A stretch of DNA of 64,000 nucleotides from an uncultured Lactobacillus sp. (GCF_947367085.1 NZ_CANBCP010000005.1:118-64117), one strand, 5' to 3'; shown: positions 23,887 through 44,499, counted from the first letter of the stretch. Numbers and translations are program-made. Notes: generated from the letters alone by a model not told the origin.

Positions 23887-25341
23887 TTATGAAGCTAATT
23901 TTTTAATCCATTTATGCCAACCATCAACTAGTTTGTTTTTATCATTTTCTTTCATCATTGGTTGATAGCTGATCTCTGAGTTCGTATCGGTGACTTTTTG
24001 GTTTGCATTCATTACACTGCCTAGTGCGCTTAGTTCTGAGATCTTTGATATATCTACCTTACTTTGAGTAATATTGCTTAAAAATTGCATCAAATATTTA
24101 TTATGAATCATTCCGCCATCTGTGTGAATTTCTTTTGCTAGAGAAGGGGTTATAGTTTGAAATTCATTTAAAATGTCATTTATTTGATATACCAGAGAAT
24201 TGAGTGTGGCACGAACTAATTCATTTTTGCCAGTTGTTGCATTCATCCCCACAAAGGCTGCTTGTAAATCAGGAAGCCAGTAAGGAGCACCGAGACCAGA
24301 AAAAGCAGGTATTAGATATGTATGGTCTTTGGGATTGGCAGTTAAAGCGAGATCTGCAGTTTCTTGGGGTGTCTGGATTAAGTGCAAATTATCTTTTAAC
24401 CACGTTACACAAGCTCCAGCGTAATTGATATTACCTTCAACTACATAAGAAGTTTTACCATTTAATGACCACGCAATTGAAGTGTTCAGTCGATTATTAA
24501 TATTATCAGGTAAGTTATTTCCAATATTTAGCATAACCGAAGAACCAGTTCCAAATGTTACCTTAAAGTCACCAGAATTAAAGCAGTGGTGAGCAAATAG
24601 AGCAGCTTGAGAATCACCTAAGACACTTAGAATAGGAATGGGTTGGCTCAGAAGACCAAATAAATCAGTCTCGCCAAATTGAGAATTGGAATCAACTATC
24701 TCAGGGAGAGTATTTAGGTCGACTCCAAAAATTTCAGCTAACTCTTCATCCCATTGACCAGTTCTAATGTCCATTAACTGAGTTCTACAAGCATTAGAAG
24801 GCTCAGTTTTGAAAGATTTACCATTTGTTAATTGATATATAAGCCAGCTATCCATAGTGCCTAAGCATAAGTCATTATTTTCGTAAGCTTGTTTTACACG
24901 AGGTTCGTTTAAAAGCATCCAGCCCCATTTTGCACCAGTAAAATATGGGGAAAGAGCTAGGCCAGTTTTTTCTTTAACCTTATCTTTTAATTCAGGATAA
25001 GAAATCTTTTTAAGCAGACTTTCAGCACGACTATCTTGCCAAACGACAGTATGACATAAAGGTGATCCGGTTTTACGTGACCAGGCTGCTGCTGACTCTC
25101 TTTGATTAGTTATAGCCAATTTTGTAATTTGGTCTTCTGAAACTTGACTTAAAGCTGAAGCAAAGAGACTTTTTAAATTATCTTTTATTTCATCAAGATC
25201 ATGACTGACCCATCCTTGACGGTTGATAATTTGTTTGTGAGGTAATGCAGTCTTCCAAAATATTTGATTATCTTGATTGACTAAGATTGCTTTGGTGCCC
25301 TGAGTACTTTGATCGATGGCCAGAGTATATTTTTCTGACAT
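23887..25341 (-). CDS. FGGY-family sugar kinase, glycerol kinase-like (candidate apulose kinase)
   Basis: LAIDQSTQGTKA, ITNQRES, GDSQAALF, VTFGTGS, PAFSGLGAPYW, DGG. Confidence 0.85.
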   Translation of the reverse strand: MSEKYTLAIDQSTQGTKAILVNQDNQIFWKTALPHKQIINRQGWVSHDLDEIKDNLKSLFASALSQVSEDQITKLAITNQRESAAAWSRKTGSPLCHTVVWQDSRAESLLKKISYPELKDKVKEKTGLALSPYFTGAKWGWMLLNEPRVKQAYENNDLCLGTMDSWLIYQLTNGKSFKTEPSNACRTQLMDIRTGQWDEELAEIFGVDLNTLPEIVDSNSQFGETDLFGLLSQPIPILSVLGDSQAALFAHHCFNSGDFKVTFGTGSSVMLNIGNNLPDNINNRLNTSIAWSLNGKTSYVVEGNINYAGACVTWLKDNLHLIQTPQETADLALTANPKDHTYLIPAFSGLGAPYWLPDLQAAFVGMNATTGKNELVRATLNSLVYQINDILNEFQTITPSLAKEIHTDGGMIHNKYLMQFLSNITQSKVDISKISELSALGSVMNANQKVTDTNSEISYQPMMKENDKNKLVDGWHKWIKKLAS

Positions 25342-25355
25342 GAAATCACCAACTT

Positions 25356-26297
25356 TTATTTATCAAGAATTTTCTTAATAGATTTTTCAATTCCTTCAGC
25401 ATCAAGACCGTAATAATGGAATACTTCATCTTGGGTGCCTTGAATTGCTGGTTTGTCTGGAAAGCCAAGGATATCTAATTTAGCGTGACCATATTTTGCG
25501 ACTTCACTTGCAACTGCTGCGCCAATACCATTTATGACATCGTGTTCTTCGACAGTGACAATATGATCGAATTTTTGAGCTAGTTGACCGATTAATTCAG
25601 TATCAAGTGGCTTAATAGAGCCGAGATCTACAACTTGAGCATTAATACCTTGCTTTTCAAGATTTTCAGCAGCTTTTAAGGCAAAATATAAAGTTTCACC
25701 AGTAGAGATTAGACAGATATCTTCGCCTTTTTTAATAATCTTGGCTTTGCCAGGAACAAAATCAAAATCTTCGTGATATACGTTGTCCAATTTACGCTTA
25801 CCAATACGAACGTAAGCTGGTTTATCTGAGGTTAATAAGTATTTGAAAAGAGCTTTAACTTGATACTTATCGCAAGGTTGATAAACTTCAAGATCAGGAA
25901 TAGCACGTGTAATAGCTACATCATTGAGTGAGTGGTGGGTGTTACCAAGCCAGGTGTAAGAATTACCACCTGAAATACCAATCAACTTAACATTATTTTT
26001 GTTAAATGCAACATCTACCTTAACTTGTTCAATTGAGCGCATTGCTAAAAATGATGCAGGAGAAAATACAAAGGGATGCTTTCCTTCATGAGCTAATCCG
26101 GCAGCTACAGTAACTGCGTTTTGCTCAGCAATCCCCATCTCAACAGTGCGATCAGGGTGAGCGTTGGTGAATGGCACTAATCCGGCTGAGCCACGAGAGT
26201 CACAAGTCACTACTAATAAATCAGGATCTTTTGCTGTTGCTTTATCTAAAGTATCTGCAATCACTGCATTTGCTGTTAACTTTTCATCATTAGTCAT
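25356..26297 (-). CDS. Transketolase C-terminal subunit (split TK)
   Basis: EMGIAEQNAV..AAGLA, RSIEQVKVD, VTVEEH..NGIG pyrimidine-binding and C-terminal domains. Confidence 0.92.
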   Translation of the reverse strand: MTNDEKLTANAVIADTLDKATAKDPDLLVVTCDSRGSAGLVPFTNAHPDRTVEMGIAEQNAVTVAAGLAHEGKHPFVFSPASFLAMRSIEQVKVDVAFNKNNVKLIGISGGNSYTWLGNTHHSLNDVAITRAIPDLEVYQPCDKYQVKALFKYLLTSDKPAYVRIGKRKLDNVYHEDFDFVPGKAKIIKKGEDICLISTGETLYFALKAAENLEKQGINAQVVDLGSIKPLDTELIGQLAQKFDHIVTVEEHDVINGIGAAVASEVAKYGHAKLDILGFPDKPAIQGTQDEVFHYYGLDAEGIEKSIKKILDK

Positions 26298-27123
26298 TGT
26301 TAAGTGCCTCCATTTGTGCGTCTAATTCTCGTAATCCTTCTTGGTATTGGACTTCAGTAGGAATCTTGTGATGCCAATCAGCTCTGTTTTCGGCAACTGT
26401 AATACCTTTTCCTTTAACAGTATTAGCAATAATCATTCTCGGTTTATTAGTATTATTTTCTTTAGTTAAGACATCAACTAATGCACCGATATCATTGCCG
26501 TCGACTTCTTGAACATCCCAACCAAAAGCACGATATTTATTACTAATTGGGTTAGAACGCATAACTGAATCGGTAGTACCAGTAATTTGTAAATCATTAT
26601 GGTCAATGATTGCAGTTAAATTATCTAAGCTATAGTTACCAGCAGCCATAGCAGCTTCCCAAACAGATCCTTCTGCTTGTTCACCATCACCCATTAATAC
26701 ATAGGTATGCTTGGGTGAGTGATTCATTTTTGCTGCTAAAGCGACACCTACGCCAAGGCCTAATCCATGTCCCAGTGATCCTGTATGAAATTCCATACCC
26801 TTTACGTCGGTTGTAGGGTGGCCGATATAAGGACTATTGAAAGTTGAATATCTCTTTTCCAGATCATCACGATCAATATATCCTTTATCGGCTAATATTT
26901 CGTACCAAATTTCAACAGCGTGTCCCTTGCTTTGAATATAAGTGTCGACATCTTTTTGACCAAAATTATCTTTATCCTGGTTCATTACTTGATAATAAAG
27001 TGCAACTAAAATATCTGTACAAGATAAATCAGAACCCGTGTGACCATTTTTGTGGTTATAGATTAATTGCCAAGTTCTTTCTCTAAGCTCGACAGCTTTC
27101 TTTTTTAAATCTAACGTATTCAT
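26290..27123 (-). CDS. Transketolase N-terminal subunit (split TK)
   Basis: GHTGSDLS, SKGH, GSLGHG, TPP motif GDGEQAEG...N. Confidence 0.92.
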   Translation of the reverse strand: MNTLDLKKKAVELRERTWQLIYNHKNGHTGSDLSCTDILVALYYQVMNQDKDNFGQKDVDTYIQSKGHAVEIWYEILADKGYIDRDDLEKRYSTFNSPYIGHPTTDVKGMEFHTGSLGHGLGLGVGVALAAKMNHSPKHTYVLMGDGEQAEGSVWEAAMAAGNYSLDNLTAIIDHNDLQITGTTDSVMRSNPISNKYRAFGWDVQEVDGNDIGALVDVLTKENNTNKPRMIIANTVKGKGITVAENRADWHHKIPTEVQYQEGLRELDAQMEALNND

Positions 27124-42926: not shown

Positions 42927-42939
42927 GTACTGTATTTGA

Positions 42940-42981
42940 ACTAAACTAACAAATCCACACTTTATAAAGAAATCGCTTTCA
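42940..42981 (+). promoter_or_regulatory. Island motif half-site (42940-42949) and cre-like site (42968-42981)
   Basis: ACTAAACTAA; AGAAATCGCTTTCA. Confidence 0.45.
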
Positions 42982-43026
42982 TGTACAATTAAATTGTTAA
43001 GAAACAATTTGAAGGGAGATAAAAAC

Positions 43027-44499
43027 ATGGCATTTCCAAAGAACTTTTTATGGGGTGGCGCAACAGCTGCAAATCAAATTGAAGGTGCATACGACGTTGA
43101 TGGTAAGGGACTTTCAGTAACTGATATTACGACTGCAGGTAGTTTAGACAAGCCAAGAATGTTGACTTATAAATTAAATGGCAAGTTAGAAAAGACACCT
43201 GGAATACCTGGCGCGGGCTTACCTCAAGGCGCTGTGGGTGCAATTGATCCAAATGAATATTATCCAAATCATGTCGCAATTGATTTTTACCATCATTATA
43301 AAGAAGACATTAAATTATTTGCTGAGATGGGATTTAAGACATTTCGCTTGTCAATTGCTTGGACTAGAATTTTTCCAAACGGTGATGAAGAAAAGCCAAA
43401 TCAAGCAGGACTTGATTTTTACCGTCGTGTGTTTGAAGAATGTAAAAAATACGGCATTGAACCTTTAGTGACGATTTCACACTATGAAGATCCACTTTAT
43501 TTGAGTGAAAAATATCATGACTGGCAAGATCGCAAGATGATAGATCTTTACGTCAAATACGCAACTACTTTATTTGAAGAATATAAGGGCCTAGTGAAGT
43601 ATTGGCTGACTTTTAACGAAATTAATAGTGCGATCATGTTCTTAGATATGTTTGCTGATAAGGTTAGTGATGAAGATTATCAACATGCTTACCAAAAGCT
43701 GCATTATCAATTTGTAGCGAGTGCCAAGGCTGTTAAAAAGGCTCACGAGATTGATCCAAATTATGTGGTTGGTAATATGATTTGCGGTATTGTTAACTAT
43801 CCTTTGACGCCTGATCCAAAAGATATTTTGCTTAACTTCCACGCTTGGGAAAAGAACCTGTTTTATTGTGGAGACGTTCAAGCTAAAGGTAAATATCCAA
43901 CTTTTGCTAAACGTTTGTGGAATGAGCATAATGTTCATTTAGACATTACAGATGAAGATAAAAAGGATCTTCTTGAGGGTAAAGTTGATATGTATACTTT
44001 TTCTTACTACATGTCTAATGTGATCACATCCCACAAGGTGGAAGATAAAGTTGGTGGCAACTTCGCAGCTGGTGCTAAGAATCCATATCTTAAGTATTCT
44101 GAATGGGGCTGGGCAACTGATCCTGATGGCTTACAATACTATCTTGAATTGATGTATGATCGTTATGAAATTCCAATGATGGTTGTGGAAAACGGTCTTG
44201 GTGCAGTTGATAAAATTAGTGAAGATGGCAAGATTCATGATGATTATCGAATTGATTATTTGAGAATGCACATCAAGGCAATGAATCGTGCTATTGAAGA
44301 TGGTGTGGATTTGATTGGTTACACCACTTGGGGCTGTATTGATTTAGTCAGTGCTGGTACTGGTCAAATGTCAAAGCGTTACGGTTTTATTTATGTTGAT
44401 CGCGACGATGAAGGAAATGGCAGTTTGAAGAGAATGCCAAAAGATTCATTTTACTGGTACAAGAAGGTAATTGAATCTAATGGAAAAGATTTAGATTAA
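43027..44499 (+). CDS. bglA: 6-phospho-beta-glucosidase (GH1)
   Basis: [35 protein letters not shown]; GAAGGGAG RBS before ATG 43027. Confidence 0.92.

Follow-up and report, generated by a model that had tools for sequence, protein, structure and literature searches.

A Lactobacillus genomic island with a predicted system for cytoplasmic use of plant apiosides

Results

A single insertion between glnQ and a GNAT gene

Here, we analysed a stretch of 64,000 nucleotides (hereafter, the window) from an uncultured Lactobacillus sp. (GCF_947367085.1, NZ_CANBCP010000005.1:118-64117) that contains an island of genes for a sugar kinase, a split transketolase, an isomerase, several glycoside hydrolases (GH), a beta-glucoside phosphotransferase system (PTS) and a major facilitator superfamily (MFS) transporter; the island probably serves the use of plant apiosides in the cytoplasm (Table 1). 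Junction alignment against relatives delimits the inserted block to ~23886 to ~46255 (~22.4 kb), with the left edge directly 3′ of the glnQ terminator and the right edge directly 5′ of a conserved GNAT promoter. Three related Lactobacillus genomes (G006, G007 and G010) retain the empty site, in which glnPH-glnQ is joined directly to the GNAT gene (46314 in the window), and gene collinearity with these relatives resumes after GNAT and extends to 58 kb of the window. The region is a single true insertion, a horizontally placed island. In G007, one of the empty-site genomes, the cluster is present on a different contig; its location thus differs between species. The Pfam, NCBIfam and PHROGs matches of the region include neither an integrase nor a transposase family, no flanking repeats were seen by eye at the junctions, and the GC content of the island (0.31-0.37) resembles that of the flanks, without deviation in base composition.

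An earlier note on this DNA, made from the sequence alone, had named an insertion next to glnQ as a point to check, and the glnQ/GNAT empty sites show one. The same note ended the block at 44499 (~20 kb), whereas the inserted block reaches ~46255 and takes in the EamA transporter and an orphan open reading frame (ORF), for which there is no Pfam, NCBIfam or PHROGs family and no paralogue in the genome. Every gene that the note had listed is present at its place in the ORF listing and in the Pfam and NCBIfam matches, and the genes are contiguous as described, but their order differs: one of the two PF13204 enzymes follows the isomerase rather than the MFS transporter, and the first LacI-family regulator (LacI1) lies between the transketolase and the isomerase.

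Table 1. Genes and regulatory features of the island (positions in the window; a dot marks features without strand)
Feature	Position	Strand	Evidence and remarks
FGGY kinase, predicted D-apulose kinase (AplK-like)	23887-25341	-	FGGY_N and FGGY_C domains
Transketolase pyrimidine-binding/C-terminal subunit (AptB-like)	25356-26297	-	Pfam; 36% identity to E. coli AptB, 60% to Pediococcus cluster protein
Transketolase thiamine pyrophosphate-binding N-terminal subunit (AptA-like)	26290-27123	-	Pfam; 43% identity to E. coli AptA
Divergent control region	27144-27226	.	Catabolite-responsive element (cre)-like box 27144-27157; 23-bp perfect palindrome CTAAACTAAAATTTTAGTTTAG at 27204-27226 containing ACTAAACTAA
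LacI-family regulator 1 (LacI1)	27243-28277	+	Pfam, NCBIfam; same position in all related islands
cre-like box upstream of isomerase	28351-28364		Consensus match
Fuc/Ara-isomerase-like protein, predicted D-apiose isomerase (ApsI-like)	28387-29844	+	68% identity to Pasteurellaceae cluster isomerase
GH140-type beta-D-apiofuranosidase candidate, predicted cytoplasmic	29853-31139	+	PF13204 'Apiosidase', 275 bits (cut-off 26.5)
BD-FAE / alpha-beta hydrolase esterase (accessory)	31171-32079	+	Pfam, NCBIfam; weak PaeX match, 83 bits
licT-PTS leader	32156-32267	+	Promoter-like site overlapped by perfect cre box 32157-32170; ribonucleic antiterminator (RAT); terminator
LicT/BglG-type antiterminator	32283-33119	+	CAT_RBD (PF03123) and two PRD (PF00874)
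Beta-glucoside PTS EIIB'-EIIB-EIIC-EIIA, 733 aa	33130-35331	+	TIGR01995, 808 bits (cut-off 615)
YdjC-family putative carbohydrate deacetylase (accessory)	35386-36165	+	Pfam, NCBIfam; same position in only one related island
GH78 alpha-L-rhamnosidase, predicted cytoplasmic (accessory)	36174-38936	+	All four GH78 domains: PF17389 (402 bits), PF08531, PF05592, PF17390
LacI-family regulator 2 (LacI2)	38987-39946	-	Pfam; adjoins MFS-DUF5060 in all 10 Lactobacillus clusters
LacI2/MFS divergent control region	39971-40064	.	TGTAATGGGTTACA at 39971; ACTAAACTAA at 40015-40024; perfect palindrome TGTAACCGGTTACA at 40051-40064
MFS transporter	40092-41333	+	Pfam; paired with DUF5060 hydrolase in every cluster mapped
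DUF5060-PF13204-DUF5605 glycoside hydrolase, orphan 4N0R family	41361-42893	+	PDB 4N0R, E 2e-99, about 50% identity
GH1 upstream region	42940-42981	.	ACTAAACTAA at 42940-42949; cre-like box 42968-42981
GH1, 6-phospho-beta-glucosidase type	43027-44499 (likely start ATG 43027)	+	Glyco_hydro_1, 416 bits
EamA transporter	44614-45534	+	Inside segment absent from relatives' empty sites; right-hand cargo
Orphan ORF, 204 aa	45620-46234	+	Right end of insertion; absent from empty sites

A predicted transketolase route for D-apiose

The kinase, the split transketolase and the isomerase at the left of the island very probably constitute the D-apiose transketolase route (ApsI/AplK/AptAB, MetaCyc PWY-8089), to judge from their link to a cluster of Escherichia coli. 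Growth on D-apiose has served to validate the cluster of E. coli ST131, which encodes AplK, AptA and AptB (PMC13001218). The island kinase shares 32% identity with the validated AplK of E. coli SE15, and this alignment, like those of the AptA-like and AptB-like proteins with their E. coli counterparts, spans the whole protein; the AptA-like and AptB-like genes are adjacent, with an 8-nt overlap. On the GlpK model (cut-off 590), the window kinase and E. coli AplK both remain below threshold, at 472 and 495 bits, respectively, as do the kinases of the Pasteurellaceae and Pediococcus clusters, all these kinases scoring 450-495 bits. A true GlpK is encoded elsewhere in the genome, and given this and the sub-threshold score, we rejected a glycerol kinase identity. 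A housekeeping transketolase was likewise rejected, because the enzyme is split, island-borne and without counterpart in relatives. Bar one weak match of 33 bits, Transketolase_N matches nothing in the genome but the AptA-like protein; there is no canonical transketolase in this 99%-complete genome, and the split enzyme of the island is its only real transketolase.

The link between the island and the validated cluster runs through Pasteurellaceae, in which a contig with the order regulator-SBP-DUF2291-ABC-permease-aptA-aptB-aplK-isomerase (SBP, substrate-binding protein; ABC, ATP-binding cassette) encodes AptA and AptB that are 75% identical to those of E. coli, next to an isomerase that is 68% identical to the island protein. 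With high identity on either side, this cluster forms a bridge from the island to E. coli. The isomerases of enterobacterial aptA-aptB-X-aplK operons (35 operons) align with the island isomerase over the full length, at 25-28% identity; comparison with the PDB yielded no solved structure related to it by sequence. We assigned the ApsI family from PMC13001218 together with gene position in a sample of 80 proteobacterial aplK loci, of which 35 contain a homologue of the isomerase, 35 contain two short-chain dehydrogenases/reductases (SDRs) and one contains both. This near-exclusive distribution fits the statement that SDRs replace apsI in the E. coli-type cluster (PMC13001218). The window also encodes, 13 kb downstream from the island, a phosphoketolase (59666-62098; XFP_N, 568 bits) that can take the xylulose-5-phosphate that the predicted apiose route would deliver.

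As a separate observation, the isomerase is unusually strongly conserved, being 88-93% identical across Lactobacillus species, compared with only 47-86% for neighbouring island proteins; its identity remains at 65-72% in other families as well as in Pasteurellaceae.

Cytoplasmic hydrolases

Immediately downstream of the isomerase, the island encodes a GH140-type protein that retains the conserved motifs FFxLxDTxW, QSGH and D.E..YE and matches solved structures in the PDB, namely, 8T9W ('Apiosidase') and 3KZS/5MSY, with E values of 1e-12 to 4e-11. The GH78 protein matches the rhamnosidases 3W5M and 6GSZ (E 1.5e-124). Membership of the last hydrolase of the island in GH1 is certain on the strength of its domain match, and its assignment to the phospho-specific subfamily is probable: it scores 591 bits on NCBIfam NF007158, below the cut-off of 639, and is 51% identical to the GH1 enzyme that closes the Pediococcus cluster. 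Its motif is presumably of the BglA type, with candidate phosphate-binding Ser, Lys and Tyr residues near the C-terminus. Inspection of the N-termini revealed no signal peptide on any island hydrolase, as the earlier note had claimed, in contrast to the neighbouring flank protein GlnPH, which has one; all island hydrolases are predicted to be cytoplasmic.

The PTS, its antitermination leader and shared promoter motifs

The PTS protein is 53% identical to the PTS adjoining GH140 in Pediococcus and possesses an extra, divergent N-terminal EIIB-like domain (33130-33420), in which the cysteine is kept (HCVARIRI), followed by the canonical EIIB (HCVTRLRF). This long form (733-736 aa) is kept in related Lactobacillus islands, whereas the Pediococcus orthologue is a normal IIBCA protein of 615 aa. 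The licT gene, with a likely start at ATG 32283 preceded by GGAGG, encodes a protein that scores 289 bits on the NCBIfam LicT model, under the cut-off of 300. Upstream of licT-PTS, the leader contains a RAT, GGATTGTTACATTAAGTTGGCAAGACC (32204-32230), which has no second match in the window, against a chance expectation of zero. The 3′ part of the RAT is the 5′ arm of a terminator hairpin with a stem at 32221-32261 and a T-run (T6) at 32262-32267 (-21.4 kcal/mol, z -4.2 upon folding). The earlier assignment of LicT with a RAT is therefore borne out by a unique RAT overlapping a strong terminator. A second LicT/BglG-type antiterminator, with a CAT and two PRD domains, is encoded at 20657-21502, left of glnPH and outside the island.

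The cre consensus, with at most one mismatch and both strands counted, has 21 matches in the window versus ~5 expected. Six distinct cre-like sites occupy intergenic regions of the island (27144, 28351, 32157, 39971, 40051 and 42968), which agrees with the previous claim that such sites precede most units; related islands also keep the palindrome TGTAACCGGTTACA of the LacI2/MFS region. A second motif, the 10-mer ACTAAACTAA, has 13 copies across the genome (2.0 Mb), of which the island holds 5; it occurs in four island promoter regions (within 27204-27226 and at 32115, 40015 and 42940) as well as at the same promoters in related islands. From these motifs, the island units appear to be under catabolite control, through the cre boxes, and under a common regulator acting at ACTAAACTAA. 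We note that ACTAAACTAA is unlike the CG-centred operator of the LacI type. A terminator-like hairpin (~32085-32114, read by eye) follows the esterase gene. The terminators cited here were read by eye or folded; a simple promoter/terminator scan gave counts at chance level.

The DUF5060 hydrolase travels with apiose genes

The second PF13204 enzyme of the island, a DUF5060 protein, retains the motifs ANE(Y/W)D and DE..YEGN. Ten other Lactobacillus genomes carry its gene, and in 8 of them it is clustered with the apiose isomerase gene, the remaining 2 not having been mapped that far. In a 300-genome sample of the order, the isomerase is present in all DUF5060 carriers (3/3) versus a background of 18/300. 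Furthermore, in Kluyvera (loci L040 and L086; 1-11.5 kb), a homologue with 40% identity and a GH140-like gene lie beside aptA-aptB-apsI-aplK, so that the tie between apiose and the orphan 4N0R family extends to Enterobacteriaceae. The structure 4N0R belongs to an uncharacterised family distantly related to GH140 (preprint 10.64898/2026.05.19.726164). Because it travels with apiose genes in both Lactobacillus and Kluyvera, apiosides are the substrate lead for the DUF5060 enzyme, which we regard as a candidate second apioside hydrolase.

A conserved core with accessory genes

Among 80 other Lactobacillus species searched, 9 carry the GH140-type gene and 10 the DUF5060 gene. The recurring layout is kinase-transketolase-transketolase | LacI1-isomerase-GH140-(LicT-PTS)-(esterase)-(YdjC)-(GH78) | LacI2 | MFS-DUF5060, where parentheses mark the variable genes. 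The catabolic genes, GH140 and LacI2-MFS-DUF5060 are together in 8 of the 9 GH140-positive species, at different chromosomal sites. The esterase, present in only some related islands, YdjC and GH78, present in 3 of the 9, are accessory; four related species' islands lack both esterase and GH78. Independent distribution of the sub-blocks, which the earlier note had named as a test of the unity of the island, was found for these three genes only, whereas the core travels together. Two species without GH140 nevertheless retain MFS-DUF5060 together with the isomerase and an ABC transporter. A compact form, PTS-GH140-LacI | isomerase-transketolase-transketolase-kinase-GH1, is found beyond the genus in Pediococcus acidilactici. 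Across 80 named GH140 loci of Bacillota, with neighbours considered within 10 kb, we found a bgl-type PTS in 43, the catabolic trio in 33, both in 24 and GH1 in 19. These loci come from Companilactobacillus, Liquorilactobacillus, Lactiplantibacillus, Sporolactobacillus, Paenibacillus, Listeria and Niallia, as well as from Bacillus sonorensis, Streptococcus suis and others.

Discussion

The gene content and arrangement of the island point to two uptake branches that would feed one catabolic route, and we consider such a system for the cytoplasmic use of plant apiosides the probable function of the locus. In the first branch, the LicT/RAT-controlled PTS would import an aryl- or alkyl-beta-glucoside that carries apiose or rhamnose on glucose O2 and phosphorylate glucose O6 during import. 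The GH140-type apiosidase would then take off the outer apiose, with GH78 doing likewise for rhamnose in this strain, and GH1 would cleave the residual glucoside-6-phosphate to glucose-6-phosphate and the aglycone. In the second branch, the LacI2-controlled MFS transporter and the DUF5060/4N0R hydrolase would import and cleave a second, unphosphorylated class of apiosides. The esterase and YdjC may take off acyl groups. The apiose released would be converted to apulose by the ApsI-like isomerase, phosphorylated by the AplK-like kinase and split by the AptAB-like transketolase, with glyceraldehyde-3-phosphate as acceptor, into dihydroxyacetone phosphate and xylulose-5-phosphate, which the downstream phosphoketolase would cleave.

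The chemistry of the two enzymes that frame the first branch narrows the range of plausible substrates. The EII proteins of the bgl family phosphorylate glucose O6, and GH1 phospho-beta-glucosidases require the 6-phosphate and an unsubstituted glucose in subsite -1. The PTS branch therefore suits 2-O-linked apiosides of the apiin type and neohesperidosides such as naringin, and, given the need of GH1 for unsubstituted glucose, the outer sugar would have to be removed first, by GH140 or GH78. In rutinosides and 6-O-apiosyl glucosides, glucose O6 is blocked, which makes them unfit for the PTS/GH1 branch, although the MFS/DUF5060 branch might take them. We accordingly rejected rutinosides and acuminosides as PTS substrates. 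The earlier note had read the block as a complete intracellular deglycosylation system for apiosyl- or rhamnosyl-glucosides. Part of that reading stands: the island is single, its core travels together, its hydrolases are predicted to be cytoplasmic, and the bgl-type PTS and GH1 provide the frame. Its rutinoside-like PTS substrates do not stand, as the glucose O6 of 1->6 diglycosides is not open to phosphorylation, whereas 1->2 apiosides and neohesperidosides fit; nor do the fragments of rhamnogalacturonan-II (RG-II), to which nothing in the island points, there being no uronate genes and no secreted enzymes; and the esterase, YdjC and GH78 are accessory parts rather than elements of a fixed system. 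Deglycosylation alone is also too narrow a description, because the predicted kinase/transketolase/isomerase route would yield carbon from apiose as well.

Several observations weigh against the proposed use of apiosides. For the window kinase and transketolase, identity to the validated proteins or to those of the bridge reaches only 32-45%, the sequence similarity of the GH140-type protein to solved apiosidases is weak (E about 1e-12), and both GH1 and LicT fall just under their NCBIfam cut-offs. L. jensenii DSM 20557 has the core without LicT-PTS, so that the PTS is not obligatory. We know of no demonstration that a bgl PTS phosphorylates the internal glucose of a 2-O-substituted glucoside. 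Finally, three homologues of the 4N0R family were without detectable activity, and apiosides were not among the substrates listed (10.64898/2026.05.19.726164).

Instead of a system with a common substrate, the island could be a patchwork of independent sugar cassettes that accumulated at an insertion hot spot, namely, an aryl-beta-glucoside PTS/GH1 cassette, a rhamnoside cassette, an MFS/hydrolase cassette and a pentose-like catabolic unit. The uneven occurrence of the esterase, YdjC and GH78 among related islands, the lack of LicT-PTS in L. jensenii, the existence of ABC-transporter variants, the non-adjacent position of GH1 in most Lactobacillus relatives and the presence of two separate LacI regulators and several terminators would all be expected of such an assembly. 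We nevertheless consider it unlikely, because nearly all GH140-positive species keep the catabolic genes clustered with GH140 and LacI2-MFS-DUF5060, at chromosomal sites that differ between species, the PTS is found near GH140 in many genera, and the rare 10-mer ACTAAACTAA is common to four island promoters and kept in relatives.

Two other alternatives concern the substrate. The island might scavenge apiose-bearing pectic fragments (RG-II or apiogalacturonan oligosaccharides) freed by other gut bacteria, with MFS/DUF5060 taking apiosyl-galacturonides and the esterase being a PaeX-like oligogalacturonide acetylesterase. The founding GH140 enzyme, BT1012, is said to act on RG-II, and 5MSY is among the structures matched by the GH140-type protein; the weak PaeX match of the esterase (83 bits), the presence of GH78 and the GH28 gene reported to flank the L. 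jensenii cluster (PMC10711310) are also in line with pectin. The Pfam and NCBIfam matches of the island, however, include no uronate catabolism, no lyase and no GH28 or GH105, its enzymes lack signal peptides, and the recurring partners of GH140 are the beta-glucoside PTS and GH1, which point to a glucoside core, so that we rate the pectic alternative as quite improbable. It is still harder to maintain that the isomerase, kinase and transketolase handle another sugar, by a sulfoquinovose-type route or as an L-fucose/L-arabinose-like ketose, and that the PF13204 proteins are not apiosidases. The sole NCBIfam match of the isomerase is indeed to the sulfoquinovose isomerase SftI, but at 97 bits against a cut-off of 700, and ApsI proteins of the validated type give an equally weak match; the match to validated AplK, AptA and AptB is of modest identity, but the isomerase is 68% identical to that of the Pasteurellaceae cluster, whose AptA and AptB share 75% identity with the validated E. 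coli proteins. In 33 of the 80 loci, a PF13204 enzyme is a neighbour of the trio, and the island lacks sulfoquinovosidase and genes for sulfonate export or reduction. To our knowledge, the sulfo-transketolase route has no role for a kinase. We rejected the sulfoquinovose route on the grounds of the shared weak SftI score and the missing sulfoquinovosidase and sulfonate genes, and regard any other sugar as very improbable.

The proposed apioside system combines components that are already known singly, that is, the apiose route, GH140, LicT/PTS/GH1 loci and GH78, whereas the literature searched yielded no account of a PTS-coupled route for apiosides. The D-apiose transketolase pathway (ApsI, AplK, AptA/AptB), reportedly described by Carter et al. 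(2018, Nat Chem Biol 14:696), has the same three enzyme types in a cluster, the split transketolase with overlapping genes and the sub-threshold GlpK-like kinase. The known clusters, however, import free apiose by an ABC transporter (SBP-DUF2291-ATPase-permease), which the island lacks; its route, with proteins at 32-43% identity to the validated ones, would receive apiose from glycosidases that act in the cytoplasm after uptake by a PTS and an MFS transporter. The structures 5MSY/3KZS, which we take to be BT1012, a GH140 beta-D-apiofuranosidase from the RG-II loci of Bacteroides thetaiotaomicron, share with the island enzyme the PF13204 domain and the predicted release of D-apiose; BT1012 belongs to a Bacteroides polysaccharide utilization locus acting on a pectic polysaccharide, whereas the island enzyme is Gram-positive, predicted cytoplasmic, PTS/GH1-linked and distant (E 4e-11). 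Plant glucoside loci composed of LicT, EIICBA and a phospho-beta-glucosidase have reportedly been described in L. acidophilus (Theilmann et al. 2017, mBio), and bglPH/licT of B. subtilis is said to be of the same kind. With these loci, the island shares LicT/RAT, the bgl EII, GH1 and a predicted release of the aglycone inside the cell; they are said to act on mono-glucosides and gentiobiosides, and the island adds the candidate apiosidase, the rhamnosidase, the apiose route and the extra EIIB.

The closest published locus is the 'glycan utilisation gene cluster' of L. jensenii, with a rhamnosidase, an isomerase, DUF4038, DUF5060, MFS, an alpha/beta hydrolase and GH1 (PMC10711310). It is a cluster of the same type, and L. 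jensenii DSM 20557 is among the islands mapped here. In that 2023 paper, DUF4038/DUF5060 were interpreted as GH13/GH14 amylases and the cluster was assigned to glycogen or surface-glycan use, with no recognition of apiose (PMC10711310); from our domain assignments, the amylase label looks like a misannotation. In some vaginal L. jensenii strains, the isomerase gene is reported to be frameshifted and DUF4038 to have deletions (PMC10711310), which would fit the decay of an unused plant-glycoside system.

Beyond Lactobacillus, we tentatively suggest, as a joint proposition that we hold to be possible rather than probable, both that many Bacillota (lactobacilli, pediococci, Paenibacillus, Listeria) may use a PTS-coupled route that takes up apiosylated plant glucosides, strips them of their sugars in the cytoplasm and gains energy from apiose, and that DUF5060/4N0R may be a second family of apioside-cleaving enzymes. 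Apiose glycosides are common in food and feed, as in the case of apiin (parsley, celery), the apiosides of liquorice and many aroma precursors, and the literature searched contains no description of their handling by Gram-positive gut or food bacteria. If the proposed function is correct, lactobacilli would gain a route that frees bioactive aglycones while feeding on apiose; in addition, the published misannotation in L. jensenii would be corrected, and an orphan glycoside hydrolase family would be supplied with a substrate to try. Given that the parts are individually known, this would be an extension of known systems and not a new principle.

A further GH140-type gene came to light in L. johnsonii UMB3423, where a second GH78 and a second GH140-type gene lie upstream of the apiose island (contig C33, 53.7-60.1 kb, of genome G051). 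The latter has 54% identity and one in-frame TGA, and may be a decaying duplicate.

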